Source of the DNA: Geotalea uraniireducens Rf4
GTDB taxonomy: Bacteria; Desulfobacterota; Desulfuromonadia; Geobacterales; Geobacteraceae
NCBI RefSeq assembly: GCF_000016745.1
Contig: NC_009483.1
Coordinates: forward strand, 3,690,001-3,722,000
DNA: 32,000 nt
Direction: 5' to 3'
Each line of letters opens with the position of its first letter. Position 1 is the first letter of the stretch. The position numbers and the translations under genes are program-made. The notes under the pieces are model-generated. The model did not search any database and had not been told where the DNA came from. It saw only the letters and a list, made by a program, of their open reading frames with translations. This document shows, one piece after another, positions 15,089 to 30,414 of this stretch.

Positions 15089-17308
15089 TTAATTCGGCGG
15101 CATACCTTCCTGGAACTGGGGAATATCGCCGGAGCGGCCACCATGGCACCTGCCGCAGCTACCCTGGTCCTTGACGCTGAAGGCCATTGCAGCCCCGTGA
15201 CAGGCGCCGCACGATTTACCATCTTCCATATCCTTCATCTTATACTGTTTCCTGGCGACACCCGGTGCAATGAGATTGTTGTGGCAGTCACCACAGTTGT
15301 ACCCCTTCGAAATATGCAGTTTGTGACTGAACAAGACACTGCCGGTATTGGCCGGCAGTTCATATTTCACCGCCCTCGTCACGTTGTGACACTTGCTGCA
15401 ACTGCCGGTAACCGCAAAGGCAGTGTTCGATTCGTGACAAGCGCCGCAGGACCGCCCCTTTTCCATGTCGGGCATGGTGTAACGCTTGTTCCCCTCACCC
15501 GGAACGAATAGCTTGGAGTGGCAATCGTTGCAGCGGTAAACACCCAGATGAAACTTGTGGCTGAAGAGCGCTCCCGATTCCTTGAACTGGATCTCTTTAA
15601 CCGGATGGCACTTTTCACAATTTTCTTTTACCGTAAAAGCGGTTTTCGCGTCGTGACATGCGCCGCAGGACTTGCCACCCTCCATATCAGCCATTTTATA
15701 GCGTTTGGCTGCCACACCGGTAGTGAATATACCGTTGTGGCAGTCACCGCACTTGTACATGCCGATATGAAATTTATGGCTGAAGTAGGTGATGCCGGTT
15801 TCGGGAACTTTGAAGGCCACTTCAATGGTCGATTTATGACACTTGTCGCAATCACCCTTGACCGAGAAGCCGGTGCTCCCTTCATGGCAGGCGCCGCACG
15901 ACGCCCCTTTTTCCATATCAACCATCGTACGCCGCTTATTGTCCGGTCCGGCAACAAACAGTTTGCTATGGCAGTCACCACACTTGTACATCTCCAGGTG
16001 CTTTGTGTGACTGAAACGGGCGTCATCCGTAAAGGTGATATCCTTGACAGGGTGGCACTTGCCGCAATTGGCTGCCACGCTGAAAGCTGTCTTCCCCTCA
16101 TGGCAGGCACCGCAGGACTTACCCTTTTCCATCTCGGCCATGGGAAAGCTCTTTCTCGCCACCCCCGTGGTAAAAACCTTGTTGTGACAGTCATCACACT
16201 TGAACATGCCCAGGTGCAGCGAATGGCTGAAGTTCACCGGACCGATATCGGGTATGGTGAAGGTGATATCCTTCGTGCTTTTATGGCATCTGTCGCAACT
16301 GCCGTTGACGGAGAAAGCGACATCACCTTCGTGACAGGCGCCGCATGATTTCAGCTTCGCCATGTCGGCCATGGTATAGCGTTTGCTGTTGACGCCACCG
16401 ACAAAGAGGCCGCTGTGGCAGTCATTGCAGTTGTACATGCCAAGATGGAATTTATGACTGAAAAGCGCATCGCTTTTCTTGAAAGGGATATCCTTGGTAG
16501 TCTTGTGACATTTTGCGCAATCGCCCTTGACTGAAAAACCGGTGCTGCCGTCGTGACAGCCACCGCAAGACCTCCCTTGTTCCATTTCACGCATGGAATA
16601 ACGTTTGCTGTTCGGACCGGCAACAAAAAACTTGCTATGGCAGTCCCCGCATTTGTACATCTCCAGGTGGAATTTATGGCTGAATAAGGCATCGGCGGTG
16701 AACGCAATGTCCTTCACGGTATGACATTTGGTGCAGTTTTCCTTGACGGTAAACGCCGTTTTCCCATCATGGCAGGCACCGCACGACACTCCGCCCGCCA
16801 TCTGCGCCATGGAAACGTGGGGGTTGCCCGGGCCCGGCTTGAACAGCTTGTTGTGACACTCGCCGCACCCGTACATACCAAGATGAAAATTATGGCTGAA
16901 GATCAACGTGCCGAAGTCGGGTATTTCGATGGGAACTTCTTTAACGATGTGACATCTTACACATTCAGTAAGGGCAAAGGCCTTGGTTTTGTTATGGCAG
17001 GCACCGCACGATTTCCCCTTTTCCATTTCCGCCATGGTCACGGGCGGCACCTTCTTGGTGATGGGAAAGATGGTCTTATGGCATACGGTACAATTACTGC
17101 CCAGTTTATTCAGATGGACATCATGGTCAAACACTACCTTACCGGCGTTCTCAGTTTTAAAAGTAACTACCTTGAACTCCTTGGCAAACAACAAAACCGG
17201 AATCATAAGCAGTAACATCAACGGCAGTAAAAAGCGTTTCACAGACTTTTCCCTCTGTTTCCTGAAATTGTGATCTTTATTTCCAAGCACATGTCGGAAA
17301 GACACCAT
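15089..17308 (-). CDS. 27-haem periplasmic cytochrome c made of nine tandem c7-type trihaem domains
   Basis: There are 27 CXXCH motifs, arranged as 9 repeats of three. Each repeat contains F(S/D)HxxH, the first CXXCH, MxxMxxxxSCGxCH and a third CXXCH. A signal-peptide-like h-region (LLPLMLLLMIPVLLFA/KE) is present. The start is ambiguous: either the ATG at 17308, or the GTG at 17242 preceded by GAGGG at good spacing. Confidence 0.95.
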   Translation of the reverse strand: MVSFRHVLGNKDHNFRKQREKSVKRFLLPLMLLLMIPVLLFAKEFKVVTFKTENAGKVVFDHDVHLNKLGSNCTVCHKTIFPITKKVPPVTMAEMEKGKSCGACHNKTKAFALTECVRCHIVKEVPIEIPDFGTLIFSHNFHLGMYGCGECHNKLFKPGPGNPHVSMAQMAGGVSCGACHDGKTAFTVKENCTKCHTVKDIAFTADALFSHKFHLEMYKCGDCHSKFFVAGPNSKRYSMREMEQGRSCGGCHDGSTGFSVKGDCAKCHKTTKDIPFKKSDALFSHKFHLGMYNCNDCHSGLFVGGVNSKRYTMADMAKLKSCGACHEGDVAFSVNGSCDRCHKSTKDITFTIPDIGPVNFSHSLHLGMFKCDDCHNKVFTTGVARKSFPMAEMEKGKSCGACHEGKTAFSVAANCGKCHPVKDITFTDDARFSHTKHLEMYKCGDCHSKLFVAGPDNKRRTMVDMEKGASCGACHEGSTGFSVKGDCDKCHKSTIEVAFKVPETGITYFSHKFHIGMYKCGDCHNGIFTTGVAAKRYKMADMEGGKSCGACHDAKTAFTVKENCEKCHPVKEIQFKESGALFSHKFHLGVYRCNDCHSKLFVPGEGNKRYTMPDMEKGRSCGACHESNTAFAVTGSCSKCHNVTRAVKYELPANTGSVLFSHKLHISKGYNCGDCHNNLIAPGVARKQYKMKDMEDGKSCGACHGAAMAFSVKDQGSCGRCHGGRSGDIPQFQEGMPPN
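15143..17179 (-). repeat. Intragenic tandem array of nine diverged c7-domain repeats, period about 72-81 codons
   Basis: The His residues of the third haem motif fall at aa 120, 196, 268, 342, 419, 491, 568, 641 and 722. Identity at the DNA level is limited to short stretches, for example TTTATGGCTGAA recurring near 15775 and 16674, with one mismatch (TTTATGACTGAA) near 16451. Confidence 0.9.
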
Positions 17309-17339
17309 TACCCTTTGTATGCCTTGCCAGTCTCGATAA

Positions 17340-17717
17340 TCAGGTAATCTTCAACAGTCCCTTTGCCACATCCAGTATTCTGTTCGGCTGGATAGGCTTG
17401 GTGATGTAATCGTTGGCGCCCAGAGCAAGGGCACGCTCCCGGTCCTCCTGCGCCCCCTCGGTGGTGATGACGACGATCGGCGTATCCTTGTAGTTTGCGT
17501 CATTGCGCACCAGACTTACAAGCTTTAAACCATCCATGATCGGCATGTTTATGTCGGTCAGAATGAGGTCGAATCTTTCAGCGGAAAGCTTTTTCAGCCC
17601 ATCGACACCGTCATTGGCTTCCACGATCCGGATGCCTCTCAATCTTTTAAGGGCAAAAGATATGAGTTGCCTCATCGTGGGCGAGTCCTCGACTATCAGG
17701 ATATTATATTGCAACAT
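17340..17717 (-). CDS. cheY: CheY-like single-domain response regulator
   Basis: The 125-aa ORF has the receiver signature IVEDS...LILTDINMP...VITTEG...YITKP. GGAGG sits 7 nt upstream of the ATG. Confidence 0.9.
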   Translation of the reverse strand: MLQYNILIVEDSPTMRQLISFALKRLRGIRIVEANDGVDGLKKLSAERFDLILTDINMPIMDGLKLVSLVRNDANYKDTPIVVITTEGAQEDRERALALGANDYITKPIQPNRILDVAKGLLKIT

Positions 17718-17802
17718 ATGTTGTCCTCCGATTATTCCACGTATCTTTCATCCATTCCAGAGGTAACCCATAGGAGCGTGCAGGGACACATACCCGATAC
17801 GG

Positions 17803-18627
17803 TTACTTTGTCAGGAGATCGATGAATCCCTGAATAGTTGAAAGCTTGCGTTCGGAATCATTGTAGAGCCTTGAGCTGAAAATGGCAGTAGCCGCATGTC
17901 CAGCCAACAGGGTGAACAGTTCGTAGTCGACAGCAGCAAACGTCGTTTTTTGCACCAACAGTTTGTAAATCACCAGCACGCCGATCACGTGTTCCTTGAT
18001 CTTGAGCGGGATGCAGACCATGGGTTGATGGAGATCCTGAACATAAGTGCTGACGTTCTCCACAAAGTAATTCTCGCCGGTCTTGGCAACTTCGCCAATA
18101 ATGCCTTTGCCAAGCTTCACATGGGGAATATTGTCCCGGAGAATGCCTTCACAGGCGACAGCCTGAATTTCATTGCTCTTTTCGTCAAGGAGCATGATTG
18201 CGAATTCTTCGGCGCCGATCAGGTTTATGATGATCTCGGTAATTATCTGCAGGACCTCTTTGAAATCGAGGGTGGAATGCAACTGGTAACTGGCAATGTA
18301 GAGGTTTGCCAGGTTGTTGTTTTCTTCCTCGATTTCTATATATCGGGCAGCAAAATCCTGATTTTCCGCCTCCACCTGCTTGATCCGCCCGAGGATCTCA
18401 TCCTTTTCCCGTTCCAGCTCCTCAATTCGCTGAAACAGCTTGCGGTTTTCATCAGTCGAGGCAGGAACCCCCTCCAGGTTGGACTGAGATTCCTCCAGTT
18501 GGATAATCCGATAGCGGAGCCGTTCGTTTTCCCTCATCAACTCCTGGGTAAACTCGGCCCCTTTTTTGAAGACCTGCAAGAACTCTTCAGCCCTTCCATG
18601 AACGCCTTTATCTTCTTCCTTTGACAT
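17803..18627 (-). CDS. Coiled-coil plus GAF-domain protein
   Basis: The N-terminal roughly 110 aa are heptad-rich and charged (ERLRYRIIQLEE..., ELEREKDEILGRIKQVEAENQD...). The C-terminal part has a GAF-like pattern (LIGAEEFAIMLLDE...GKGIIGEVAKTGE...VCIPLK...VIGVLVIY). Confidence 0.8.
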   Translation of the reverse strand: MSKEEDKGVHGRAEEFLQVFKKGAEFTQELMRENERLRYRIIQLEESQSNLEGVPASTDENRKLFQRIEELEREKDEILGRIKQVEAENQDFAARYIEIEEENNNLANLYIASYQLHSTLDFKEVLQIITEIIINLIGAEEFAIMLLDEKSNEIQAVACEGILRDNIPHVKLGKGIIGEVAKTGENYFVENVSTYVQDLHQPMVCIPLKIKEHVIGVLVIYKLLVQKTTFAAVDYELFTLLAGHAATAIFSSRLYNDSERKLSTIQGFIDLLTK

Positions 18628-18650
18628 ATTCCACTCCAGTCTCTGTTATA

Positions 18651-19736
18651 TCAGTCCCTGTTATGTAAAATTCCGCAATGCGAAGCGATTTCATTGGCCA
18701 TCCTGTCGATGGGCGCCACCTTGTCAACCAGCCCGGTGGCTATTGCCTCACGGGGCATGCCAAAAACAACCGCCGATTCTTCAGACTCAGCGAGTATCCT
18801 GGCGCCAGCAGCCTTGGCCGTCTTAACTCCGCGGCTTCCATCATTTCCCATGCCGGTAAGGACCACCGCCAGCAGGCGTGAGCCATAGATTTCAGCACAG
18901 GAAGCAAGCATGGCATCCACGGAAGGTATATATTTATCCGTCGGCGCCGGGTCGACCACCCGGACTATTACTTTCCCATCAAGAGACTGAAGCACCATAT
19001 TTCGGCCCCCCGGAGCAACCAGAACCCTTCCGGGCAAAACGGCATCACCGTCTTTAGCCTCTTTGATCTCAAAACCTGATGTACGATTCAGTCTTTCGGC
19101 AAAAGCCCTGGTAAATCCCGCGGGCATGTGCTGGGAAACCACAACAGCAACCGGCAGCGGCTCTGCGAACGCGGAAAAAATGCTCTGGAGAGCCGGTGGA
19201 CCTCCGGTAGAAGCTCCAATGGCGACAATATCGACTTTGGATTTGACTGTTTTTGCGGTCGGAAACAACGCCGGCTTCTTTTCCTTTTTTGCCTTTGCCT
19301 CCTGGATAAACAATGACTCCCGTCTTTTGATCCCCGCCATATTGAGGTTAAAAACACTCCGCACCTTTTTCTGGAGATCGTCCTGAATTTTCAGAAGTTC
19401 ATCGGATATCGTCCTGGTCGGTTTCGCGATAAAATCAACAGCGCCCAGTTCAAGCGCCTTAAAAACCCGCTCGTCCTCACTCCCGGAACTGATCACGATA
19501 ACCGGCGTAGGACAGCTGCTCATGATGATGCGCAACGTAGTAAAGCCGTCCATTCGGGGCATTTCAAGATCAAGAGTAACGAGATCGGGACTTAGATCGA
19601 TAACCCGCCTGATTCCCTCCTCACCATTGGCAGCGTAGCCTACAACCTCAACCTCCGGCACCTCTTCAAGCATCTTGGTAATAGTACGTCGATTGTAAGC
19701 CGAATCGTCTATGACCACCACCCTCACCTTCTTCAT
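18651..19736 (-). CDS. cheB: Chemotaxis-type protein-glutamate methylesterase (REC plus CheB domain)
   Basis: The receiver domain shows VVVIDDS...LVTLDLEMP. The esterase domain shows [12 protein letters not shown] and HMPAGFT. I moved the start to the ATG at 19736: GGAGG lies 7 nt upstream, and this ATG forms an ATGA overlap with the cheR stop at 19733-19735. The track start at 19760 is over-extended. Confidence 0.93.
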
Positions 19737-20608
19737 GCAAAACCTCCGAATTCCGCACATTCAGGCTTGTGGTAGACCATGTCGTTTTTCAGGTGTTTGA
19801 GAGCAAAGGCAGTAGAAATATTCATCAACGATTCGGAATGGCCGAGGAGAAGATACCCTCCCTCGCGCAATGACTTGTAAAATGATTCCACAACCCTCTT
19901 CTTGGCGATCTGATCGAAATATATGATGACGTTGCGACAGAAAATCACATCCATCTTGCCGAGCAATGCAAGCCGGTTCTGATCAAATAGGTTGAGATGG
20001 CTGATAGTTACAAGCTCCCGGACTTCATCGTTTACTTTGAACATGCCTTCCTGTTCTTGAAAATATCGTTTAATATATATTTCTTCTGTTGATCTGAATG
20101 AAGATTTGCCGTAAGCAGCCTTTCGTGCCTGTTGCAGCACCCTCTGGCTGATATCGGTGCCGATGATTTCCACGCGCCAGCCTTTTATACAACCCATTTC
20201 CAGAAGAAGCATGGCGATCGTGTACGGCTCTTCACCCGTAGAACAGCCAGCACTCCAGATCCGCAATGTGCGATCGCCCCTTTTCGCCTTTACGTTCATC
20301 AACTCGGGAATTATTTCGTCGGTAAATGCCTTCAACTGAAACGCTTCGCGGAAAAAATAGGTCTCGTTGGTGGTCAGGATATCCATTATGTCGGAGAGTT
20401 CCTGATCCCGCTTTCTGTCATATTTCAGAAAATGATAGTAATCCCTGAACGCCGGAAGTTGATGATGGGACAATCTCCGGGCAAGACGTTTTTCCAGCAG
20501 ATACTTGGAGTCGTTATCAAAATATAGACCACAATGTGTATAAATGAGATCCCTGATAAGGCGAAACTCATCATCGGTCATCAGTACTTCAGGTTCAGAG
20601 CAAAACAT
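19733..20608 (-). CDS. cheR: Chemotaxis-type protein-glutamate O-methyltransferase
   Basis: The SAM-binding motif is [20 protein letters not shown], preceded by a CheR N-terminal helical region. Its start overlaps the stop of the upstream HEAT gene (TAATG at 20606-20610). Confidence 0.92.
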
Positions 20609-22632
20609 TAGAAGAACCTATCCATTAATTCCACGATCTGCCCCTTTACCGATTCATCCGACTCGGTTTCCAGGGCCGAACGCAGATATGGCAATGCCTT
20701 CTCACCCATCCGGGCAGCCATTGCCTTAACAAAACTGCTCCTTACATCCCAGTGCGGATGGGACAGAAGTTTGTTCCGGTATGCATGAATCCACCCATCG
20801 CCATTCAGAGAAAGGATGTTGATGGCAGCCTTGACCACTTCTTCATCGTGGTTTTCAAGCGCCCTTTCAACCAATGCGGTCCCCTTGTCTCCGCCGATCT
20901 GGGCAACAGTATCCAGCACGGAGATCAAAACGAGCCCTTCAGCACTCTCAAACAACTCGACAATCGCCGGCAAGGCGGCATCGTTGCGCAGATTACCAAG
21001 GCTCTTCAGTGCTGCGCACTTAACCCAGGGATCGTCATCCTTAAGCGCCAAGAGTAAAGGATCGAGGACGTCATCCCCGCCGATATCCCCGAGAGCGCCT
21101 GCTGCAGCAATACGGACATCAGGATCCTCATCAACCAAAGCCATGACGAGGTGCCCGACGCTCGCCGCCGACTTGAGCTTGGCCAACGAACTGACCGCGG
21201 TTTTGCGTACGGATGCGTCTTCATCCTTGATAAGGAGCGAAAGTTTATCGGTGTCGGAGAGTGCCGTGCAAAGAATCGCCGCATTACGCCTTTTTTCAGA
21301 AACTTCGGAAGAGGCAAGTTTGCCGGTAATTTTTGCTACGGCTACCCTGTCCGCTTCGACAAGGCGATAAAGGGCTTCAATTGCCCCTTCACGGACATCC
21401 GGCTCACTGTCTTCGAGCAGATGGGCGATTTCGTTGATAAACACAACAAGGCCGGTCTTACCCGCAGCCTGCACCGAGGCTTTTCTCAGCCGGGCATTGG
21501 AGTCGAGCAGCCCTTCGCTTAATAGGGAAACGCACCCCTTGTAGCGCAATTCTCCGCATACATAAACGATGAAACAGCGTTCATCGTCATCCGCGGCAGG
21601 ATATGCTTCAACCAGAGATGCTGCTCCGCCCTCCCCCATGGCCTTGAATGCCTGCAAGCAGTGCCTGCGGAGCCTGTCGTCACAGCAGCCGCGAAGCAGA
21701 TGGCCAGACGCACGATCATCCCCGATGATGCCGAGAATTTTGACCAGTGACTCTCTCAAACTGCTCTCGGAAGTTTCAAACGAAGCAAGCAGACCTTCCA
21801 CAAACGGAGTTCCCTTGAACCTCCAGAGCCTCTCATCCACTGCACGTTCAGCGATTTCGGAGGGGAGGCGGTCCCTGAGCGAAACAAGCCCCATCGCCGC
21901 TGCCTCACGGGCATTCTTCACCCTGTCCTTCAATCCCTCCACAAGAAGCGGCACCGCCTCCACATCGCCAATCGCACCGAGACAGTCGTATATCGCCTTT
22001 TTCAGGAGATTTTCCTTGGCAAGCGGTACAATCGCGGCCATAGGCACCGGTTTACCGATTTTGCCGATGGACTCGAGAATGGTGAACCTCAGCCAAACGT
22101 CATTTTTTGCCAAGGCCTGCAAAAGAGCCGGTATCGCCTGCGCATCCCGAATCTTTCCCAGATTTTCTGCAGCTGCAGCACGAACGTTGGCATCGGAGTC
22201 ATCGAGCGCCTTTATCAAATGCGGCACAAAAGCAGGGTCGCAGATGTTCCCCATGATGTCGACAATGAACTTCCGCACATCATGGTCGTCATCCCCCACA
22301 TGACGGCAAAGGGCATGTGTAGCCTGCCGCCCGAGCTTTTCCAGGGATTCCACGGCGGAATTGCGCAGGCCTGCATTTTCCTGGGATCTGAGCATATCGA
22401 TCAGCTTTTCCTCCAGGATTACAGCACCAGTACCGGTAGCAGCGGCCACAAGTATATCTACCGCCTCTTTGCGGACACGCCAGCTTATATCGCCCAGAGC
22501 ACGAAAAAGACTTTCTTCAATCTGGTCAAGGGGATACCCTCCCAGGCCGACCACTGCCAGTCTCCGTTTTTCCTCATCAGGCGAACAGAGTTGTTCAGTA
22601 AGGGTATGCAGTTTTTCCACTACGCGCTCCAA
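20608..22632 (-). CDS. HEAT-repeat (PBS-lyase-type) protein, 674 aa
   Basis: DxDxxVRxxAxxALGxI-like units recur many times, for example DDDHDVRKFIVDIMGNI, DSDANVRAAAAENLGKI, DEDASVRKTAVSSLAKL, DEDPDVRIAAAGALGDI and DDDPWVKCAALKSLGNL. The track start is a TTG at 22632. A GTG at 22620 has a better-spaced GGAG. Confidence 0.85.
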   Translation of the reverse strand: MERVVEKLHTLTEQLCSPDEEKRRLAVVGLGGYPLDQIEESLFRALGDISWRVRKEAVDILVAAATGTGAVILEEKLIDMLRSQENAGLRNSAVESLEKLGRQATHALCRHVGDDDHDVRKFIVDIMGNICDPAFVPHLIKALDDSDANVRAAAAENLGKIRDAQAIPALLQALAKNDVWLRFTILESIGKIGKPVPMAAIVPLAKENLLKKAIYDCLGAIGDVEAVPLLVEGLKDRVKNAREAAAMGLVSLRDRLPSEIAERAVDERLWRFKGTPFVEGLLASFETSESSLRESLVKILGIIGDDRASGHLLRGCCDDRLRRHCLQAFKAMGEGGAASLVEAYPAADDDERCFIVYVCGELRYKGCVSLLSEGLLDSNARLRKASVQAAGKTGLVVFINEIAHLLEDSEPDVREGAIEALYRLVEADRVAVAKITGKLASSEVSEKRRNAAILCTALSDTDKLSLLIKDEDASVRKTAVSSLAKLKSAASVGHLVMALVDEDPDVRIAAAGALGDIGGDDVLDPLLLALKDDDPWVKCAALKSLGNLRNDAALPAIVELFESAEGLVLISVLDTVAQIGGDKGTALVERALENHDEEVVKAAINILSLNGDGWIHAYRNKLLSHPHWDVRSSFVKAMAARMGEKALPYLRSALETESDESVKGQIVELMDRFF

Positions 22633-24140: not shown

Positions 24141-24196
24141 CACTATCCCTTATGAGTAAGGATTGAAACATTGATACAGGCCGATCTCCCCGCCTG

Positions 24197-24571
24197 TTAC
24201 TGTTTACCGATCAACCCTTCAATGACTTCCATGACCCTGGCGGATCTGAACGGCTTGGTAATGTAAGCATCCGCGCCAACCTGCCTTCCCCGCTCAACAT
24301 CCTGGTTGCTCTTCTTGGCCGTCAACATTACCACAGGAATACTTTTGGTTTCATTATTTTCCTTGATCCGTTTGCAGACCTCGAAACCATCGATCTCCGG
24401 AAGCATGATGTCCAGAATTACAAGATCAGGCCTGTTCGTCTTGATCTCTTCAAGCGCCGCTCTGCCATCCATAACCCCGGTAACTAAATAGCCTTTCGAA
24501 GTAAGAAGTATGCTTTCCAGTTTTAAAAGACTTTCCTCGTCTTCGACAACGAGAATCTTGTTATTGTTCAT
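24197..24571 (-). CDS. cheY: CheY-like single-domain response regulator
   Basis: The receiver signature is LVVEDEES...LVILDIMLP...VVMLTAK...YITKPF. The track start at 24583 is a TTG. The ATG at 24571 sits 6 nt after GGAG and is preferred. Confidence 0.9.
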   Translation of the reverse strand: MNNNKILVVEDEESLLKLESILLTSKGYLVTGVMDGRAALEEIKTNRPDLVILDIMLPEIDGFEVCKRIKENNETKSIPVVMLTAKKSNQDVERGRQVGADAYITKPFRSARVMEVIEGLIGKQ

Positions 24572-24588
24572 GTTCGTCTCCAAATGTC

Positions 24589-25377
24589 TCAGAAGAGGGT
24601 TACATCCAGAATCTTTTCCATGTTGAGCAGAATGAGCATTCGACCGCTAAACCTGCCTATTCCGTTGACGAAATCCCGATCAATCCCTTCCAGAACAGTC
24701 GGCGGCGGCTCAAGGTCTTTCGAGTCGATCCGTACGACCTGGATTACTTCATCCACCAGTATCCCGCAAAAACCGTTGTCACCGTTCTTGACTACGATTA
24801 TCCTTTCCTTGCCTGACGAGGCCCCACCAACAAGACCAAGCCTGACTCGCATATTGAATATCGGAATGATAATCCCGCGCAAAGAAAGAACCCCGGACAC
24901 AAACGAAGGAACGCGCGGAACTTCGGTCACCTCTCGTGGCTTGATGATCTCCTTGATGTCCATGATATTGAGGGCGTATTCTTCTGTTGCCACCCTGAAG
25001 CATAGAAGCTCCTGGGAATCGCGGTTGTCGACCTCCGTCATCAATGTAGGACCAAGAAATGCATCTTCATCGCAACCGGCTCTTTCACGCCCCTGCAGCA
25101 GGACAGCAAGAGGATCATATGGTGAAGGGGCTGCCTCTTCCACCGCGAGAGAGTGCATGCGGCTCTCCAACGGCAGTGCAAAAGGAGCTTCGAGGGGTTG
25201 TCGACGTGGTTCCATGACGGGCTCGGGAAAGGTTTCAACAGGATCGGGATGCATCCCGACAGGCTTGCTCCCCTTTTCCATCGGCTCGACAGCCTGACGT
25301 ACCGTTTCTACCGGCAAGGCACCCTGTCGTTCGTCCTTTTCCTGCTGCGCTTTTTTTCTGATCTCGGCTAAATTCAT
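24589..25377 (-). CDS. CheW-domain protein with a roughly 110-aa Pro/Glu-rich N-terminal extension
   Basis: The C-terminal CheW domain reads LLCFRVATEEYALNIMDIKEIIKPREVTEVPRVPSFVSGVLSLRGIIIPIFNMRVRLGL. The N-terminal region is low-complexity and acidic/Pro-rich. Confidence 0.85.
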   Translation of the reverse strand: MNLAEIRKKAQQEKDERQGALPVETVRQAVEPMEKGSKPVGMHPDPVETFPEPVMEPRRQPLEAPFALPLESRMHSLAVEEAAPSPYDPLAVLLQGRERAGCDEDAFLGPTLMTEVDNRDSQELLCFRVATEEYALNIMDIKEIIKPREVTEVPRVPSFVSGVLSLRGIIIPIFNMRVRLGLVGGASSGKERIIVVKNGDNGFCGILVDEVIQVVRIDSKDLEPPPTVLEGIDRDFVNGIGRFSGRMLILLNMEKILDVTLF

Positions 25378-25395
25378 CTCAAACCTGCAATGGGT

Positions 25396-26196
25396 TTAAA
25401 TGGACAGTTCATCCTTGATTTCTTCTATGATGGAGGCGTCAATCAATGCCGCATCCTTGCCGAAACCGGTAAGAAGGGCATTTGTAGCCACAGCGTTTAT
25501 TTTCCTCGGCACACCGACCGTGATCTCATATATCCGTTGGACCGCATCGGGAGAAAATAGCCCGGCGCCCCCCCCGGCCACCTCCATCCTGAAATCAAGG
25601 TACTCCTGGGTTTCTTCCAGGCTCAGGGGATGAAGATGGTAGTTGATGGCAACACGCTGCCTGAACGGTTCATACAGGGGAGCGGAGATAATCTTGCGCA
25701 GCTCCGGCTGTCCCATGATAACAACACTGAGAAGGTTCCTGTCGTCCAGCTGAAAATTGGTGAGCAGCCTTATTTCGTCAAAGATCTCCCGATCCGGAAT
25801 CAACTGTGCCTCATCTACGACAATCACCGGGCAGCGTCCTTGATCGTGAAAGTGATAAAGCGCCTCGGTTATCTCTCCCAGCAGGCAATCCTTGGCGGTC
25901 GACGGGGTTTCCACGTCCAGATTTGCAGCAATGACACGCAGGAACTCCAGGGCAGTCAGACGCGGATTAAAGATAAAGCAAAAATGGTATGCATCACCCA
26001 TGGTATCCATGAGTGCACGGGAAATAGTTGTTTTGCCGCAGCCGATCTCACCGGTGAGAAGCGCCAATTCCCGTTCTTCGAGCACATACTGGAGCCTTGC
26101 CAGCGCCTCCCGGTGACCGGCACTCATATAGAGAAAACGCGGATCCGGGGTCTTACTGAAAGGCTTCTCATGAAAACCGTAGAACGTCTTGTACAT
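25396..26196 (-). CDS. ExeA/GspA/MshM-like AAA+ ATPase (AAA_22-type), ATPase core only
   Basis: The N-terminus FYGFHEKPFSKTPDPRFLY is typical of ExeA-like proteins. Walker A is GEIGCGKT and Walker B is VIVVDEAQ. At 266 aa it has no C-terminal peptidoglycan-binding region. Its ATG (26196-26194) abuts the cheA TAA stop (26199-26197). Confidence 0.8.
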   Translation of the reverse strand: MYKTFYGFHEKPFSKTPDPRFLYMSAGHREALARLQYVLEERELALLTGEIGCGKTTISRALMDTMGDAYHFCFIFNPRLTALEFLRVIAANLDVETPSTAKDCLLGEITEALYHFHDQGRCPVIVVDEAQLIPDREIFDEIRLLTNFQLDDRNLLSVVIMGQPELRKIISAPLYEPFRQRVAINYHLHPLSLEETQEYLDFRMEVAGGGAGLFSPDAVQRIYEITVGVPRKINAVATNALLTGFGKDAALIDASIIEEIKDELSI

Positions 26197-28212
26197 TTAA
26201 GCCCCGCCCCTGACAGCCTCGTTGATAATTCCACCAACATCGAGCACAAGGATCGTGCGTTGGTCGCCAAGGTCGGCAGCGCCGGAAATCCCTTTGAACC
26301 CCTTGAAGGTTTCACCAATGGATTTAATAACAATATCCTGCTGCCCCAGAAGATCATCCACTACCATGCCGAGGCGCTTTTCCGCTGCACCAACCACGAC
26401 TACATAGAAATTTTCCTGCTGTTCCCCTTGTGTCTCCGTCTCGAAAAATTTGCCGAGGCGAAGTAAAGGCAGCGTATTCTCCCGCAACTGTATGACTTCT
26501 TTCTTTTCCACGGTGCGGACGTCCTTTCGCTCCACCAGAATCGTCTCAAGAACCGACGTAATGGGAAGGGCATAGGTGCGGCCGACCGAAGATATGATCA
26601 GGGCTTTGATGATGGCAAGGGTTATGGGAAGCGTGATGATCATGCTGCTCCCTTCCCCCGGGTAGCTCTCGACATCAACCATGCCGGAAAGCGCTGCAAT
26701 ATTCGTTCTGACCACATCCATGCCGACACCGCGGCCGGAAATCTCGCTCACCTTGTCGCTCGTGGAAAAACCGGGGAGGAATATGAGATCCAACGCTTCC
26801 TTGTCATGGATAGCTTCAATGCTGGGAATAAGTCCCTTTTCCAAAGCCTTGCGCTTCACCTTTTCGATATCTATACCGGCGCCGTCATCCTCCACCTGAA
26901 TGACCACGTGGTTCCCTTTCTGATAGGAAGAGAGCTTTATGACCCCCTTTTCATCCTTTCCGGCCAGGATACGTTTTTCGGGTGTTTCGATGCCGTGATC
27001 AATGGAATTTCGGATGATGTGCATCATCGGATCGGAGATATCTTCAATTATCAGCTTGTCCAGCTCGGTGTCTGCGCCGAACATTTTCAGCTCGACCTTT
27101 TTCCCCTGCTCTCTGGAGATTTTGCGGACGATGCGCGCCATTTTTTCAAAAAGCTGACCAACGGGGATCATGCGGATTTCCATTACTCCCTTCTGCAGTT
27201 CAGTCAGCTTTCGCTCCAAACCTTTGGCAGCCTTGGTCAGTTCTATGGAAGGGGCCGAATAACCGTCCAATCTCATCCGGCCGGCCAGTTGGCTGATTGT
27301 TGAGTGGGAAAGAACCAGTTCTCCGACGATGTTCATGAGCTCGTCGAGTTTGCTGATATCCACACGCACTGTGCGGCTCATGCTCTTTGCCGTCATGGAG
27401 GCTTCCGGGGCCAGGGAAGGCGCCATTTCCTGCATTTCGGCCGGCTGGGAAGGAGACTCCCCACCAAGGAGCATTACCGTTATATTGTCCCGGTCAATCA
27501 GAGCCGTTACTTCTGCGCTGACCTTTTCCGAACCGAATAAAATTTCAAAATTTATGGAGGATTCCAGCCCCCCCCCTGCACTCGGCAGGGTACTGATAAC
27601 CTCTCCCGCGCTTTTCAGGACGTCGGTCAACTCACCCAGATCCTGGTCGAATGTGGCGAGACTGAAGGATGCGAGAATGGAAAAGATCCTGCGCCCCTTT
27701 TTTACGTTCTCAAGAAGCCGGTGCTCTTCATACTCGGTAAGCGAGCCGAGCACTCGTTCAGAGAGCCCGAGTTTTGCCAACGGGGAAACTGATTCCTCTT
27801 TTTGTACCGCGCAGACACAGGAGCTGATACGTGCCACGGCCTGAGAAATGTCATGCAACTGCCGATCGGCAGTTCCGGCGCTCTGGACCAGCGTACCCAG
27901 CAATTCCATGGACTCGAAAAGAACGCTGATGGTGTTCTGGCTGAGCGACACCTTCCCGAGACGCAGTGAGTCGAGCAGGTTTTCCATATTGTGCGACAAT
28001 TCGGCGATATCGGTAAAACCGAACATACCGGCAAGACCCTTCAGGGAATGGGCTCCGCGGAAAATGGAATTAACCAGGTCAGGATTGAAGTCGCCACCGT
28101 CAGCACAGTCACTGAGAGCGACAAGGTCCAGACTCAACTGGTCGATAATCTCCTCAGCTTCTGCCAGAAAATCCTTGGCGGCTTTACCTATGGCATTGTC
28201 AACACCGGTCAT
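26197..28212 (-). CDS. cheA: Chemotaxis-type histidine kinase CheA
   Basis: The Hpt domain has the phospho-His box FRGAHSLKGLAG. A dimerisation region is present. The N-box is HIIRNSIDHGIE, G1 is VEDDGAGID and G2 is GRGVGMDVV. A C-terminal CheW-like P5 domain is present. Confidence 0.96.
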   Translation of the reverse strand: MTGVDNAIGKAAKDFLAEAEEIIDQLSLDLVALSDCADGGDFNPDLVNSIFRGAHSLKGLAGMFGFTDIAELSHNMENLLDSLRLGKVSLSQNTISVLFESMELLGTLVQSAGTADRQLHDISQAVARISSCVCAVQKEESVSPLAKLGLSERVLGSLTEYEEHRLLENVKKGRRIFSILASFSLATFDQDLGELTDVLKSAGEVISTLPSAGGGLESSINFEILFGSEKVSAEVTALIDRDNITVMLLGGESPSQPAEMQEMAPSLAPEASMTAKSMSRTVRVDISKLDELMNIVGELVLSHSTISQLAGRMRLDGYSAPSIELTKAAKGLERKLTELQKGVMEIRMIPVGQLFEKMARIVRKISREQGKKVELKMFGADTELDKLIIEDISDPMMHIIRNSIDHGIETPEKRILAGKDEKGVIKLSSYQKGNHVVIQVEDDGAGIDIEKVKRKALEKGLIPSIEAIHDKEALDLIFLPGFSTSDKVSEISGRGVGMDVVRTNIAALSGMVDVESYPGEGSSMIITLPITLAIIKALIISSVGRTYALPITSVLETILVERKDVRTVEKKEVIQLRENTLPLLRLGKFFETETQGEQQENFYVVVVGAAEKRLGMVVDDLLGQQDIVIKSIGETFKGFKGISGAADLGDQRTILVLDVGGIINEAVRGGA

Positions 28213-28275
28213 AAAATCTCACTTGATGGATAAGGGCGAATTGCGTTCGTCCAACAGCCGGACATGCCACGCGCC

Positions 28276-28641
28276 CTACCCCAGATATGTGCCGATCAGT
28301 TCCTGAAGTTTGAGAGGATCAAAGGGTTTTACCAGGTATTCGTTGGCTCCGAGCGCCAGTCCCTTCTCCAGATCCTTGTCACTGCTTTCAGTGGAGATGA
28401 TAAAGAGTGGAATGTCCTGATAGTTGGGATTGTTTCTCACATAGCTGATCAATTCAAGGCCGTTTATGTCGGGCATGTTTATGTCGGTTATGATAAGATC
28501 CACCTGTTCCCGCGGCAAAAGGCGCAACGCCTCAAAACCGCTGGCAGCCTCAATGATTTCATATTTTTCCAGGGAATCAATGGTTGAAACGAGCAGAGAG
28601 CGCATGGTATTGGAATCTTCGGCTATCAGTATCTTTTTCAC
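28276..28641 (-). CDS. cheY: CheY-like single-domain response regulator
   Basis: The receiver signature is LIAEDSN...LIITDINMP...FIISTES...YLVKPF. The GTG start at 28641 sits 4 nt after GGAGG and overlaps the upstream gene's TGA stop (GTGA). Confidence 0.9.
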   Translation of the reverse strand: MKKILIAEDSNTMRSLLVSTIDSLEKYEIIEAASGFEALRLLPREQVDLIITDINMPDINGLELISYVRNNPNYQDIPLFIISTESSDKDLEKGLALGANEYLVKPFDPLKLQELIGTYLG

Positions 28642-30341
28642 AACTCCTCCCGGCTTTTATCCTTTAATCTACGCTGTAAAAGAGCTTTTTCCATCGCCAA
28701 ACCCGCTTGCGAAAGGAATATTTCCAGCGAGTCGGTGTCCCCTATCGGTTTCATTTCAGGGAGATTGTCACCATACAATACCGCAACCACCTTGCCTTCG
28801 CTGACTATCGGACCGACAAAGGATTCCGCCGGTTGCTCGCCGCCCAACTGCTCGATGAAATATCGATTCCACTTTGAATCATCGGGTTTCGCCTTGACCG
28901 GCAGCAAAGTCTCAACAACCTCGCTGAACAGCGAGGTCTCTCCCTTGGGGATGCGCATGGATCTGATTTTTGAATCGGCAAGCCCCTCGCTGTCGTTGAT
29001 GCCGAACTGCCCGAGGCCGGCAATTTCGTCTTTTTTAACAATGAGGACGACGGCGCGATTCATGAACTCGGAAGCGAAGCGGAGCACCAGCAGAATGATT
29101 CCACCGCCGAGAGACGGATTGTTCAGTTCGTCGAGCATTCCCCGCAGAAGGGAAATACCGGTACTCTGTTCAACCGGCTTGGCAGGCGGATAAAGCCCTT
29201 CCCCCATTTCAAGGCGCAGTTCATCGCCGATATTGACCTTGTCGCTCGGTACAGCCATTCCTCCGCAGGATTCAACCCGGGCCAATTCCGGGAGAAGACC
29301 GGCCTTGAAAGTCCGGAGCAAGGCCGGATCCTGGATCTCCGTCTTGCGCGGCTTCATAATGATGGGAAACCCCATCGCCTTTACCTTCCGTTCTGCGTCG
29401 CTGTTGTGATAGTCAGTCAGTACGAGCACGGGAAGAGCCGCAAAGTTATTACCAATCAGTTCAAGAAGTTCCAATCCCCCCAGAATTCCCGAGCCGTCCA
29501 TCCTCGGCATGATCAGATCCACGAGAACCGTCGGATGACGGCCATCGCGGCACAGAGTGTCAATCTTTATCAGGGCCTCTTCACTCTTCTCAAGGGCGCA
29601 TACTTCATATCTCCCGCCTTCAAGGAGAGAAACAAACGCGTCGCGGGTATCGGCGTCGTCATCGACCAACACCACCAGCCGCCGTTCTCCCTGCTCGGAC
29701 AGAACGGACTCCGGTTCCGGCGCAGACTCAGGGGATTGCAACAGGTCAAAAGCAAAATCGACACTCTCTTCAGCCTGAACCGGTGCCGGTTGAGACTGCT
29801 CTGCATCTTCCAGGGATTCGCCGCGGTGTCGTTTTTCATCGATGATCCTGGAGCCTTCCATGGCCAGGAACTGGGGGTTGAGTCCCTGTTCCAGCATGAA
29901 CTGCATCGGGTCCATCCTGGTATGATCGACCGCTTCGACCGTATCCTGAAGTTCGAAATCGAAAGAGCCTTCTGCCCATGCAAAAAGGGAATAGACGACA
30001 GATTCGATCTGCTCGTGCACTACCCCTTCAATGGCCTCGGAACTGACATTGAATCGCTTTATCAGGATGGTTCCCAGCAGCTCGGAAAAACCTTCGTCTT
30101 CCTGAATGCTCAGCGCCTGTTTGAGGGTAGTGAGATCGATAATCCCTTTCTGGATCAAGACCTCGCCCAGGTTTTGCTGATAAGAGCTTGAGCTGGCACG
30201 GATAACCTGGCCGCTGCGGAAGATGATTCTCGCTTCACGCCCCCTGCTGTGCAAGGCAAGAATCCCCGACTTCCGGCTCAGGCTTACTATCTGCAAAATT
30301 TCGCCGAGCCCCAGATCTTCCAAATTTCCGACAAGACTCAT
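28638..30341 (-). CDS. PATAN (DUF4388) - receiver - GAF-like three-domain protein
   Basis: The N-terminus MSLVGNLEDLGLGEILQIVSLSRKSGILAL...GEVLIQKGIIDLTTLKQAL matches the PATAN/DUF4388 pattern. The central receiver reads LVVLVDDDADTRD...TVLVDLIMPRMDG...VLVLTD...IIMKP. The C-terminal roughly 170 aa are GAF-like (RAVVLIVKKDEIAGLGQFG...VVAVLYGDN...FLSQAGLAMEKALL). Confidence 0.8.
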   Translation of the reverse strand: MSLVGNLEDLGLGEILQIVSLSRKSGILALHSRGREARIIFRSGQVIRASSSSYQQNLGEVLIQKGIIDLTTLKQALSIQEDEGFSELLGTILIKRFNVSSEAIEGVVHEQIESVVYSLFAWAEGSFDFELQDTVEAVDHTRMDPMQFMLEQGLNPQFLAMEGSRIIDEKRHRGESLEDAEQSQPAPVQAEESVDFAFDLLQSPESAPEPESVLSEQGERRLVVLVDDDADTRDAFVSLLEGGRYEVCALEKSEEALIKIDTLCRDGRHPTVLVDLIMPRMDGSGILGGLELLELIGNNFAALPVLVLTDYHNSDAERKVKAMGFPIIMKPRKTEIQDPALLRTFKAGLLPELARVESCGGMAVPSDKVNIGDELRLEMGEGLYPPAKPVEQSTGISLLRGMLDELNNPSLGGGIILLVLRFASEFMNRAVVLIVKKDEIAGLGQFGINDSEGLADSKIRSMRIPKGETSLFSEVVETLLPVKAKPDDSKWNRYFIEQLGGEQPAESFVGPIVSEGKVVAVLYGDNLPEMKPIGDTDSLEIFLSQAGLAMEKALLQRRLKDKSREEL

Positions 30342-30385
30342 AGTGACGGAACTCGATAAAAAAAGGAATTTAGTAACAGGCGCTC

Positions 30386-30414
30386 ATACTAAACTATCCG
30401 ACAACCTAAGTAAA
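30386..30414 (-). promoter_or_regulatory. Candidate sigma70-type promoter for the Che-like operon
   Basis: The minus strand reads TTTACT (30414-30409), a 17-nt spacer, then TAGTAT (30391-30386). It lies in the 81-nt der / first che gene spacer. No terminator follows der, so read-through from era-der is equally possible. Confidence 0.3.

Follow-up and report, generated by a model that had tools for sequence, protein, structure and literature searches.

The der–leuS chemosensory block of Geotalea uraniireducens Rf4, a very probable orthologue of the Geobacter beta-group (Esn) cluster

INTRODUCTION

The closest described relatives of the locus analysed here are che clusters of Geobacter. The beta-group cluster comprises cheA, cheW, cheB and cheR without an mcp or an HD protein gene, and it was listed for the Geotalea daltonii FRC-32 genome by Tran et al. 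(2008, PMC2577667), who also reported extracellular matrix regulation (PMC2577667). In G. sulfurreducens, the genes encode EngA (GSU2225), a response regulator (GSU2224), CheY (GSU2223) and CheA (GSU2222), with GSU2224 lying between EngA and CheY/CheA (PMC8242959). GSU2221 is an ATPase, the CheW GSU2220 is EsnB and the CheA GSU2222 is EsnC (PMC5585712), and GSU2210 carries 27 haems (PMC10138318). Deletion of esnA, esnB, esnC or esnD causes a defect on electrodes and none on Fe(III) oxide (PMC5585712); with fumarate or Fe(III) oxide, the esn mutants show normal growth, but they fail on electrodes (PMC5585712). The cognate receptor, EsnA (GSU1704), is an orphan class-40H GAF-MCP (PMC5585712) with a transmembrane domain, which was omitted from the two-hybrid constructs, and it binds EsnB and EsnC in that assay (PMC5585712). 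Disruption of esnB alters cyclic-dinucleotide signalling in G. sulfurreducens.

Related arrangements occur in other lineages. The che8 cluster of Myxococcus xanthus has been stated to be conserved in Anaeromyxobacter and G. sulfurreducens (PMC2330069), and the Che8 operon is also without an in-cluster Mcp (PMC3945109). In the Tax1 system of Synechocystis, the PatA-type regulator PixG, when phosphorylated, binds to PilB1, a protein of the pilus motor, and the CheY-like PixH counteracts PixG (PMC11181946; bioRxiv 10.1101/2021.06.11.447907).

RESULTS

Gene content and layout

Within the window, i.e., the whole 32-kb stretch of DNA analysed, 14 collinear genes occupy the minus strand from 30341 to 15089, and ORF and Pfam searches placed every ORF and its domains in the order given by the sequence-only reading. 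The features run from der to leuS as follows.

30423 to 31790, minus strand: der/engA, ORF of the upstream housekeeping flank, outside the system
30386 to 30414, minus strand: promoter-like element TTTACT-N17-TAGTAT between der and the PATAN gene, ~45 nt before the first start codon
28638 to 30341, minus strand: PATAN (DUF4388)-REC protein with a tentatively GAF-like C-terminus; DUF4388/PATAN 102 bits, REC 38 bits; GSU2224 counterpart
28276 to 28641, minus strand: CheY1; REC 96.5 bits; overlaps the PATAN gene stop; GSU2223 counterpart
26197 to 28212, minus strand: CheA; Hpt, H-kinase_dim, HATPase_c and CheW-like P5 (Pfam); EsnC/GSU2222 counterpart
25396 to 26196, minus strand: short ExeA/GspA-family AAA_22 ATPase; AAA_22 75.5 bits; abuts the cheA stop; GSU2221 counterpart
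24589 to 25377, minus strand: CheW with a long N-terminus; CheW domain at residues 123-258, 123.6 bits; EsnB/GSU2220 counterpart by position
24197 to 24583, minus strand: CheY2 (accessory); REC 106.5 bits
23658 to 24143, minus strand: second CheW, of canonical size; CheW 134.8 bits
22660 to 23634, minus strand: zinc-ribbon-REC (ZnR-REC) protein (accessory); Zn_ribbon_4 54 bits, REC 61.6 bits
20608 to 22632, minus strand: HEAT-repeat protein of 674 aa; HEAT_2 and HEAT_PBS (Pfam)
19733 to 20608, minus strand: CheR methyltransferase; CheR 199 bits plus CheR_N
18651 to 19736, minus strand: CheB; REC plus methylesterase (Pfam)
17803 to 18627, minus strand: GAF protein of 274 aa (accessory); GAF_2 56.5 bits
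17340 to 17717, minus strand: CheY3 (accessory); REC 106 bits
15089 to 17242, minus strand: 27-haem c7-type periplasmic cytochrome; nine Cytochrome_C7 stretches; GSU2210 counterpart
14919 to 14948, minus strand: terminator-like hairpin and T-run after the cytochrome gene and before leuS; 7 pairs, then TTTTTTTC
12407 to 14881, minus strand: leuS, ORF of the downstream housekeeping flank, outside the system

The four stop-start overlaps or abutments noted earlier are all in place: GTGA at 28638-28641 (cheY1/PATAN gene), TAAATG at 26194-26199 (the cheA stop TAA abutting the ATPase start ATG), TAATG at 20606-20610 (HEAT gene/cheR) and ATGA at 19733-19736 (cheR/cheB), where the cheB start ATG at 19736 overlaps the cheR stop and is preceded by a GGAGG Shine-Dalgarno sequence. 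Intergenic gaps of -4 to 85 nt, as originally given, hold for the block save at the cytochrome gene. Its ORF reaches 17308, but translation most likely begins at GTG 17242, a codon with a GAGGG Shine-Dalgarno sequence that is kept as the start in orthologues; the gap after cheY3 is therefore ~97 nt, not 31. For CheY2, the gene caller placed the start 4 codons later (124 aa) on an identical contig (L001). Minus-strand terminator-like matches within the block all lie inside coding sequence, in a number near the shuffle expectation, and the same scan found no terminator-like site in the CheY3-cytochrome gap, in line with the claim that the block contains no intrinsic terminator. The hairpin at 14919-14948 is a weak consensus match. 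The TTTACT-N17-TAGTAT element, which scores under the 9-of-12 threshold of the consensus scan, may serve as the promoter: the motif cTTTACTt...TTTAkkAT is kept in 10 of 12 diverse Geobacteraceae loci, and its flanks diverge.

Core and accessory genes

The block is flanked by der and leuS, and 80 Geobacterales/Desulfuromonadales genomes share its gene order. All 80 related loci can be written as der-PATAN-CheY-CheA-AAA-CheW-(CheY)-CheW-(ZnR)-HEAT-CheR-CheB-(GAF-CheY)-(cytochrome)-leuS; a der-type GTPase precedes the cluster in those loci that reach that far, and leuS comes after the cluster or the cytochrome. In Geotalea daltonii FRC-32 (CP001390.1), all 14 genes recur in an identical order, preceded by era-der. 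The 14 genes are nevertheless not one fixed unit: only about 10 form a core across the 65 loci that span the region, to which all presence counts refer. CheY1 (median identity 78%), CheA, the second CheW, CheR and CheB were found in 65/65, the HEAT protein in 64/65 with the lowest conservation (median identity 47%), and the PATAN protein in 61/65. The accessory genes are those for ZnR-REC (36/65), the GAF protein (38/65; median identity 75%), CheY3 (42/65; 88%), which travels with the GAF gene, CheY2 (54/65) and the cytochrome, present in at least 30/65 and lacking in about half.

Signalling proteins

The PATAN protein has intact receiver residues (DD/D/T/K), and both its PATAN and REC domains were confirmed. 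The GAF-like part of the earlier description stays tentative: GAF_2 scored 18.4 bits, under the cut-off of 28.6, and among 31 orthologues it reached E <= 0.01 in 19 and the cut-off in none, while hhalign of the C-terminus against the cluster's own GAF protein was negative. The GAF domain of the latter protein is sound, whereas its coiled-coil was judged from composition only, the N-terminus being Glu/Leu-rich and helical by that measure. CheA carries the phospho-His motif HSLKG at residue 55. The N-terminal 120 aa of the first CheW are Pro/Glu-rich, fast-evolving and without a domain match; across 78 orthologues this region is 24% identical compared to 66% for the CheW domain. The ZnR-REC receiver is atypical (N12, E13, A87). 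Counting the block products gave six receiver domains for one CheA, as previously stated, and D57 and K109 are kept in all six. In none of the signalling proteins does a hydrophobic stretch free of charged residues reach 18 aa. Residues 525-543 of CheA were flagged by a pure hydropathy window and rejected as a membrane span, because a Lys lies inside (ITLPITLAIIK) and the longest charge-free stretch is just 15 aa. The cytochrome signal peptide FLLPLMLLLMIPVLLFA is thus the sole strongly hydrophobic segment in the block products, which bears out the original observation.

Chemoreceptor genes

No product of the window matched MCPsignal in Pfam, and a phmmer search with a Tsr fragment query found no MCP in six-frame ORFs of at least 50 aa; the absence noted for the block thus extends to the entire window. 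The query itself scored 170 bits against PF00015 and detected MCPs in three positive-control loci (L085-L087), and it returned 0 matches across 1.5 Mb of related loci. One of the controls, L087, is a homologous cluster that is Thermodesulfovibrionales-like by its ATPase, which shares 90% identity or more with the ATPase of a Thermodesulfovibrionales genome. It encodes two MCPs between its two cheW genes, one with an Mcp40H-20_sensor domain and the second with a tip, QAGEYGKSFSVVADEIRNLS, nearly identical to that of EsnA. Because L087 has these two MCP genes in cis, "MCP-less" is a matter of gene location and not of a receptor-free pathway; the term is right for the gene content of the window and wrong if read as receptor-free, as the receptor acts in trans in G. 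sulfurreducens. The EsnA signalling-domain sequence from the supplement of Tran 2008 retrieved a discrete GAF+MCPsignal family from Geobacteraceae and Desulfuromonadaceae at ~53% identity or higher, beyond which identity drops sharply to 41% or less. The EsnA-type gene adjoins panB/panC, and che genes are absent nearby.

ATPase and cytochrome

The ATPase, annotated as ExeA or general secretion pathway protein A in the source genomes, has intact Walker A (GEIGCGKT) and Walker B (VIVVDE) motifs and was found in 65/65 loci at 67-94% identity, the FRC-32 protein being 84% identical and that of a Geobacter sp. MAG 94%. Its counterpart GSU2221 had a Tn-Seq effect of -2.1 (PMC5585712), which may be a polar effect on the downstream esnB. 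The cytochrome contains exactly 27 CXXCH motifs in its nine Cytochrome_C7 stretches, so the count of 27 haems was accurate, and all 18 complete orthologues have 27 as well.

DISCUSSION

The block is an already known cluster, not a new one. It is very probably the orthologue of the catalogued Geobacter beta-group che cluster, GSU2210-GSU2224, part of the Esn electrode-sensing network with a receptor encoded in trans. For equating the block with GSU2210-2224, cluster 5 and Che8, we relied on annotations in the literature, on the order of the genes and on the locus of FRC-32. The sequence-only reading had cautioned that the gene set might already be catalogued, and rightly so: it is the delta-proteobacterial beta group, with cheA/W/B/R and without mcp (Tran 2008). 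Its proposal of a Che-like pathway with a non-motility output agrees with the G. sulfurreducens esnB and esnC deletions, which lose electrode colonisation and not Fe(III)-oxide reduction. By analogy, the receptor and phenotype described in G. sulfurreducens would hold likewise in this organism.

In the mechanism that we propose, one or more 40H-class chemoreceptors whose genes lie at other places in the genome would form a complex with CheA and both CheW proteins. These receptors would be of the EsnA type, anchored in the membrane and equipped with a cytoplasmic GAF sensor, and CheR and CheB would methylate and demethylate them for adaptation. CheA would pass phosphate to CheB, the three single-domain CheYs, PATAN-REC and ZnR-REC. 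The output would be surface colonisation and biofilm physiology, not the flagellar motor, with c-di-GMP as the route (EsnD in G. sulfurreducens) and the PATAN-REC and HEAT proteins as probable further ones. The ExeA-like ATPase is a core subunit that, as a guess, may assemble or remodel the signalling complex; like this role, those of the HEAT and PATAN proteins are inferred.

The sequence-only reading implies a receptor-free Che pathway, in which CheA would take its input from soluble GAF, PATAN-GAF or HEAT proteins in place of MCPs. Such a pathway would fit the absence of MCPs from the window and the 80 related loci and the cluster's conservation of a HEAT protein and of two modules that are GAF or GAF-like, yet we consider it very improbable. 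CheR and CheB are universal among the 65 loci and, to our knowledge, MCPs are their only known substrates. Additionally, a mutant of the orphan MCP EsnA has the phenotype of the cheA and cheW mutants in G. sulfurreducens and EsnA binds both proteins, L087 carries MCPs in cis, and the GAF protein cannot be an obligatory input because it is accessory. The lack of an MCP gene in the block does not mean that the GAF, PATAN and HEAT proteins must be the inputs, given the EsnA receptor and the in-cluster MCPs of a relative. Even harder to credit is a conventional flagellar chemotaxis operon with MCPs dispersed in the genome. The complete CheA/W/Y/R/B set and the general dispersal of Geobacter MCP genes speak for it; however, no flagellar genes lie near the cluster in any locus, the non-canonical ATPase, HEAT and PATAN genes belong to the core, the esn mutants fail on electrodes and are normal on Fe(III) oxide and fumarate, and Tran 2008 sets this cluster type apart from E. 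coli-like clusters.

The remaining alternatives concern the output and the boundary of the system. The main output could be twitching or surface motility through the motor of the type IV pilus, driven by the PATAN-REC/CheY pair as in cyanobacterial Tax1/Pix and not via c-di-GMP, as the first two genes encode just such a pair, phosphorylated PixG binds PilB1 in Synechocystis, and insertions in pilB and pilC were recovered in the G. sulfurreducens screens that also gave esn genes. We regard this as unlikely, since neither the window nor the 80 related loci flanked by der and leuS contain pil genes and the PATAN protein is missing in 4/65 loci; it is compatible with the Esn-type explanation, not exclusive of it. 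A stronger case, although still one that we lean against, is that the cytochrome, perhaps with GAF-CheY3, is an independent neighbour between the che core and leuS and not part of one 14-gene unit. It was detected in 30/65 loci with or without GAF-CheY3, the largest gap in the block precedes its gene, it is a secreted periplasmic protein without a signalling domain, and we found no literature link between GSU2210 and Esn. Against this, its matches all fall at one position across loci, the 18 complete copies agree exactly in haem motifs, and the gene shares the strand of the che genes across a gap without a terminator-like site.

Comparison with known systems

In Myxococcus xanthus Che7, CheY7 acts on the HEAT-repeat protein Cpc7 with a non-motility output, and the operon carries a desaturase. 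The block shares with Che7 a HEAT/PBS-lyase-type repeat protein (HEAT_PBS match) and a non-motility output, but it has no desaturase. Che7 also has its own cytoplasmic Mcp7 in the operon (PMC3945109), unlike the block, and published work links the Geobacter cluster to Che8 and not to Che7 (PMC2330069); Che7/Cpc7 as the Myxococcus relative is thus not supported. Che8 (MXAN_4751-4759) encodes CheY, CheA, two CheW, CheR, CheB and CheY without an Mcp, like the block, and its CheR has 290 aa compared to 291 aa here. Its gene list contains no cytochrome, and it may lack the ExeA-like ATPase because the locus-tag numbering leaves no gene between cheA8 and cheW8b.

Cyanobacterial Tax1/Pix (PixG PATAN-REC, PixH CheY, PixL CheA) combines a PatA-type regulator with a CheY, as do the first two genes of the block, whose PATAN protein has an extra GAF-like C-terminus. 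Tax1/Pix is without the ATPase and HEAT genes of the block, and we know of no CheR or CheB in it. It has an in-cluster photoreceptor MCP, PixJ, and a CheA with its own C-terminal receiver (PMC11181946), and the block has neither. The ATPase resembles the ExeA/GspA (MshM) AAA_22 ATPases of type II secretion and pilus systems in its AAA_22 match and intact Walker motifs, and hundreds of ExeA-like proteins of 500-800 aa share ~40% identity with it along the entire ATPase module. However, with 266 aa it is without their long C-terminal part, and it sits beside cheA in a che operon, whereas ExeA-family kin adjoin secretin or pilus genes. The cytochrome matches GSU2210 in haem count, and GSU2210, GSU1996 and GSU0592 (12 haems each in the latter two) are multi-domain c7-type "haem nanowire" cytochromes; the block protein shares their build, with nine tri-haem modules, 27 CXXCH motifs and a Sec signal peptide, and no difference was noted.

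The closest match is the beta group, G. sulfurreducens cluster 5 (Tran 2008; Chan et al. 2017), with cheA, two cheW, cheR and cheB and without mcp or an HD protein gene. We detected no architectural difference between it and the block: the G. sulfurreducens order of EngA, response regulator, CheY, CheA, ATPase and CheW is the order of the block, and a 27-haem cytochrome stands at the far end of both.

Gene content and organization of the block

Fourteen consecutive ORFs occupy the minus strand between der and leuS (30341..15089), and Pfam matched each of the domain assignments that the sequence-only reading had made for their products, with a single reservation for the C-terminus of the leading PATAN protein.

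Genes of the block and its flanks, with Pfam content and occurrence in 65 region-spanning loci. Related loci are the best 80 of 463 ATPase relatives, ranked by ATPase identity.
30423-31790: der, flank upstream of the block
Gene 1: DUF4388/PATAN and REC, GAF_2 below threshold (PATAN); 61/65
Gene 2: CheY (CheY1); 65/65
Gene 3: CheA with Hpt, H-kinase_dim, HATPase_c and CheW; 65/65
Gene 4 (25396..26196, minus strand): AAA_22 ATPase; 65/65
Gene 5: CheW with a domain-free N-terminus (long CheW); 65/65
Gene 6: CheY (CheY2); 54/65
Gene 7: CheW; 65/65
Gene 8 (22660-23634, minus strand): Zn-ribbon and REC (ZnR-REC); 36/65
Gene 9: 674-aa HEAT_2/HEAT_PBS protein (HEAT); 64/65
Gene 10: CheR; 65/65
Gene 11: CheB; 65/65
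Gene 12: GAF protein; 38/65
Gene 13: CheY (CheY3); 42/65
Gene 14: cytochrome with nine c7-type stretches; at least 30 of 65
14948-14919, minus strand: terminator-like match after the cytochrome gene, the sole intergenic one
12407-14881: leuS, flank downstream of the block

The leading protein has the architecture of a PATAN response regulator, since its N-terminal PATAN/DUF4388 domain scores 102 bits against a cut-off of 25 and the receiver that follows retains the D/D/D/T/K residues. Its C-terminus had been called GAF-like. GAF_2 reaches E <= 0.01 in 19 of 31 orthologues, which favors the label; against it, the Pfam matches are sub-threshold only and a comparison with the block's own GAF domain by hhalign was not significant (Prob 0.3). 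Sub-threshold Pfam matches are thus the sole basis on which this C-terminus may be termed GAF-like. Residue inspection found the phospho-acceptor Asp and the conserved Lys intact in all six receiver domains, and the only departure from consensus is in ZnR-REC, where N12, E13 and A87 replace the usual acidic pair and Thr/Ser. This receiver may accept phosphate poorly or in an atypical way. The phospho-His motif of CheA is HSLKG. In the long CheW, the first 120 residues are rich in Pro and Glu; orthologues share 24% identity over this stretch and 66% over the CheW domain, in keeping with the earlier description of the N-terminus as disordered. As had been noted, the only strongly hydrophobic segment is the signal peptide of the cytochrome; uncharged stretches resembling a membrane span are absent from all of the signaling proteins.

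The cytochrome contains exactly 27 CXXCH motifs, the number first read from the sequence, in tandem tri-haem c7 domains, which makes it a c7 multihaem protein of the GSU2210 type. Cytochrome matches in related loci occur in this single slot only, and each of the 18 copies that are complete likewise has 27 haem motifs. Translation probably starts at GTG 17242, a codon that orthologues share and that a GAGGG Shine-Dalgarno sequence precedes; with this start, the gap before the gene is about 97 nt. The four stop-start overlaps or abutments reported between genes read as claimed, and at the ATGA junction the cheB start (19736) has GGAGG in front of it as a Shine-Dalgarno sequence.

The absence of an intrinsic terminator inside the block also held. 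Minus-strand terminator-like matches there all lie within genes, and their number is near the shuffle expectation. In the gap between der and the PATAN gene, the motif TTTACT-N17-TAGTAT/TATGAT (30414-30386, minus strand) is kept in 10 of 12 diverse Geobacteraceae loci and may serve as the promoter of the che block; it scores under the threshold of the consensus scan. A search of the same gap for the sigma-54 consensus found no site, with a count below chance. Rfam and tRNA scans of the whole window gave no match, and thus no riboswitch ahead of the cytochrome.

A catalogued cluster class

The class to which the block belongs is already known. Tran et al. (PMC2577667) divided che clusters into an alpha group, which has an HD protein and occurs in Geobacteraceae only, and a beta group with cheA/W/B/R and neither mcp nor HD protein, whose conservation across delta-proteobacteria takes in Geobacter sp. 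FRC-32 and Myxococcus. The block has the beta-group gene content according to Pfam analysis of its 14 products, with no MCPsignal in the window, and the HD domain had no Pfam match in any of the 14. The FRC-32 chromosome (CP001390.1) carries all 14 genes in an identical order, with era-der in front of them. Because the HD protein is absent and the FRC-32 locus is matched, the block is assigned to the beta group. Its conservation likewise extends beyond Geobacteraceae, to Desulfuromonadaceae/Desulfuromonadales loci and to three loci of other lineages (L087, L088 and L091). The suspicion in the sequence-only reading that the gene set had already been listed was therefore correct.

The Geobacter sulfurreducens counterpart can be followed through published annotations: EngA GSU2225, response regulator GSU2224, CheY GSU2223 and CheA GSU2222 (PMC8242959), ATPase GSU2221 and CheW GSU2220 (PMC5585712), and the 27-haem cytochrome GSU2210 (PMC10138318). 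Compared with GSU2210-2224, the window has the same order of EngA, response regulator, CheY, CheA, ATPase and CheW, with a distal 27-haem cytochrome. From these annotations and the gene order we infer that GSU2210-2224 is cluster 5 of Tran et al., whose text gives no locus tags and reports preliminary evidence that this cluster regulates extracellular matrix (PMC2577667). Chan et al. (2017) named GSU2220 EsnB and GSU2222 EsnC within the electrode-sensing network Esn (PMC5585712). Deletion of esnA (GSU1704, an orphan class-40H GAF-MCP), esnB, esnC or esnD, which encodes a diguanylate cyclase, abolished growth on electrodes, whereas the mutants still grew on Fe(III) oxide, and EsnA interacted with EsnB and EsnC in two-hybrid assays (PMC5585712). 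In a later G. sulfurreducens study, disruption of esnB shifted cyclic-dinucleotide signaling. The electrode phenotypes of the esn deletions support the proposal of a Che-like pathway with a non-motility output.

The observation as a whole is confirmed and its interpretation partly supported. As a discovery the block matters little, given that the class was catalogued in 2008 and genetic work on Esn has already dissected part of the G. sulfurreducens orthologue; its use lies in clarifying where the receptor is, a core of about ten genes, and a Che8 counterpart. The remaining interest rests on the core ATPase, HEAT and PATAN-REC components.

Core and accessory genes

The block is better described as a core of about ten genes with accessory modules than as the fixed 14-gene operon originally proposed, because presence counts differ between genes (table) and the complete 14-gene form occurs in only 14 of 65 loci. 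Relatives were scanned with one genome per GTDB species, giving 463 ATPase relatives, the best 80 of which served as loci; these 80 are all from Geobacterales or Desulfuromonadales. All 80 share the order der-PATAN-CheY-CheA-ATPase-CheW-(CheY)-CheW-(ZnR-REC)-HEAT-CheR-CheB-(GAF-CheY)-(cytochrome)-leuS. ZnR-REC co-occurs with the GAF-CheY3 pair, being present in 36 of the 38 GAF-bearing loci. Closer to the window, two Logan contigs carry an identical CheA within the same order of genes, and identity of the ATPase is 84% with its Geotalea daltonii FRC-32 counterpart and 94% with that of a Geobacter sp. MAG.

Median identity is 71% for the ATPase, 74% for der and 77% for leuS, so that the ATPase is about as conserved as the flanking genes, and the fastest-evolving products are HEAT (47%) and the long CheW (49%); the ranking of loci by ATPase identity biases these comparisons. 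In the metagenomic locus L091 (13038-14856), HEAT_2, CheR_N and CheR lie in one 497-aa product, which is followed by a 121-aa CheR fragment. A frameshift, an assembly artefact or a genuine fusion could account for this product; a genuine fusion would be a hint of HEAT working together with the methylation machinery.

Probable location of the receptor

No product of the window contains MCPsignal, nor does any six-frame ORF, in agreement with the sequence-only reading. A Tsr signaling-domain fragment found 0 matches in six-frame ORFs of the window and 82 related loci (1.5 Mb), although the query had been validated against PF00015 (170 bits) and retrieved the MCPs of control loci at about 1e-15. 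The remaining window products (IMP dehydrogenase, M42 peptidase, bifunctional nuclease, MiaB-like enzyme, DUF3373 protein, multihaem cytochrome, S20, holA and lptE) include no MCP. An MCP gene adjoining the block was not encountered, and the block is flanked by housekeeping genes in related loci.

The implication that the pathway is receptor-free is not supported, as G. sulfurreducens has the orphan EsnA and a homologous cluster has MCPs of its own. The signaling domain of GSU1704, taken from the supplement of Tran et al. (2008), retrieves a discrete family of GAF and MCPsignal proteins that are roughly at least 53% identical and are hosted by Geobacteraceae and Desulfuromonadaceae; beyond the family, identity falls steeply, to at most 41%. 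In two unrelated contigs (L085, 1503-3299, where panC also adjoins; L086, 8001-9191), panB is immediately preceded by an EsnA-type GAF-MCP gene, a conserved housekeeping context with che genes absent nearby. The cluster at L087 (2976-17327), whose ATPase clusters at 90% with a Thermodesulfovibrionales MAG protein, reads PATAN-CheY-CheA-ATPase-CheW-MCP-PBP-MCP-CheW-HEAT-CheR-CheB, with two MCPs and a periplasmic-binding-protein gene between its two cheW genes. One of these MCPs has a Pfam Mcp40H-20_sensor domain fused to a PBP-like domain, and both receptors are 36-37% identical to EsnA in nearly gapless alignments. In the second, the tip (QAGEYGKSFSVVADEIRNLS) is almost the same as that of EsnA (QAGEYGKSFGVVADEIRNLS) and carries the EsnA-like AGEYGKSF. 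Because this homologue carries MCPs resembling EsnA, the cluster type works with MCPs. The MCP-less form recurs in the other lineages of L088 and L091. In Geobacterales, the receptor gene of the cluster probably just lies elsewhere in the genome, and the missing receptor becomes a question of gene location, with an orphan EsnA-type MCP in one case and in-cluster MCPs in relatives in the other.

The ExeA-like ATPase

The ATPase is the most interesting item of the block: it is invariant, abuts cheA and is retained in distant lineages. Its AAA_22 domain scores 75.5 bits (cut-off 27) with intact Walker A and B motifs, and with 266 aa and no second domain it lacks the C-terminal extension of ExeA/GspA-type proteins. 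When 1.8 billion cluster representatives were searched in full with HMMER, it fell into the ExeA/GspA family, a very large one in which most members have 500-800 aa and share about 40% identity with it; a few short relatives (41-52% identity) also emerged. No link to secretin or pilus assembly genes was seen, the neighbors being cheA and cheW in all of the best 80 of 463 loci. The gene abuts or overlaps the cheA stop and also sits beside cheA in distant lineages, including L087. Its position at the cheA stop, its presence in 65/65 loci, its conservation similar to that of der and leuS and its retention in distant lineages are why we put forward, as a possible though rather unlikely reading, that the ATPase serves chemosensory complexes of this class as an integral, ATP-dependent subunit or assembly factor. 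To our knowledge, such a role of an ExeA-like ATPase has been described for no Che system, and the best-ranked literature matches for ExeA and che did not mention ExeA.

The short ExeA-like form is not exclusive to Che clusters, because a 264-aa ATPase (43% identity) at L090 (10001-10795), which clusters at 90% with a Candidatus Desantisbacteria protein, is not among che genes; its neighbors are an HD-domain protein and polysaccharide-export genes. Modeling the ATPase with AlphaFold2 on an alignment of 13 sequences gave poor confidence (mean pLDDT 61), and a PDB sequence search with the ATPase profile gave P-loop-level matches to midasin only. The only functional datum is the Tn-Seq score of GSU2221, which may reflect polarity on esnB (PMC5585712).

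Other genes in the window

Outside the block, a DUF3373 protein with a signal peptide (6548-8236, plus strand; 535 bits) is followed by a 457-aa cytochrome (8869-10242, plus strand) with seven CXXCH motifs, one CXXXXCH and its own signal peptide. The two may form an envelope electron-transfer pair. The plus-strand ORF at 473-1483, in window positions 1-1540, has no Pfam match, and we suspect that it mirrors, in antisense, a minus-strand gene that continues past the end of the window; our guess is guaA, because guaB lies at 1543-3012.

Proposed mechanism and comparison with known systems

In the best-supported model, an EsnA-type receptor would assemble with the two CheW proteins and CheA, and CheR and CheB would supply adaptation. 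Phosphate would pass to CheB, the three CheYs, PATAN-REC and ZnR-REC, and the output would be surface colonization and biofilm control, partly via c-di-GMP. For G. uraniireducens itself, we infer both the receptor identity and the phenotype.

The Myxococcus xanthus counterpart of the block is Che8 rather than the Che7/Cpc7 system initially invoked, because the che8 cluster has been stated to be conserved in G. sulfurreducens (Thomas et al. 2008, PMC2330069) and because of the published gene list of Che8, namely CheY8a, CheB8, CheR8, CheW8a, CheW8b, CheA8 and CheY8b without Mcp8 (Moine et al. 2014, PMC3945109). By gene lists and this literature statement, CheY-CheA-CheW-CheW...CheR-CheB-CheY without an operon MCP is also the composition of the window. 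Che7, in contrast, has its own cytoplasmic Mcp7 inside the operon (PMC3945109), and the block has no MCP. As to the HEAT/PBS-lyase-like partner of a CheY that characterizes Che7, the observation here is the presence of a HEAT_PBS/HEAT_2 protein in the block.

A further parallel is offered by the Tax1 system of Synechocystis, in which the phosphorylated PatA-type protein PixG binds the pilus motor protein PilB1 and the CheY-like PixH counteracts it (PMC11181946). This precedent suggests a possible pilus-motor output, in which the leading PATAN-REC/CheY pair may couple the pathway to the type IV pilus motor in the manner of PixG/PixH, which, if true, would tie electrode and surface sensing to pili.
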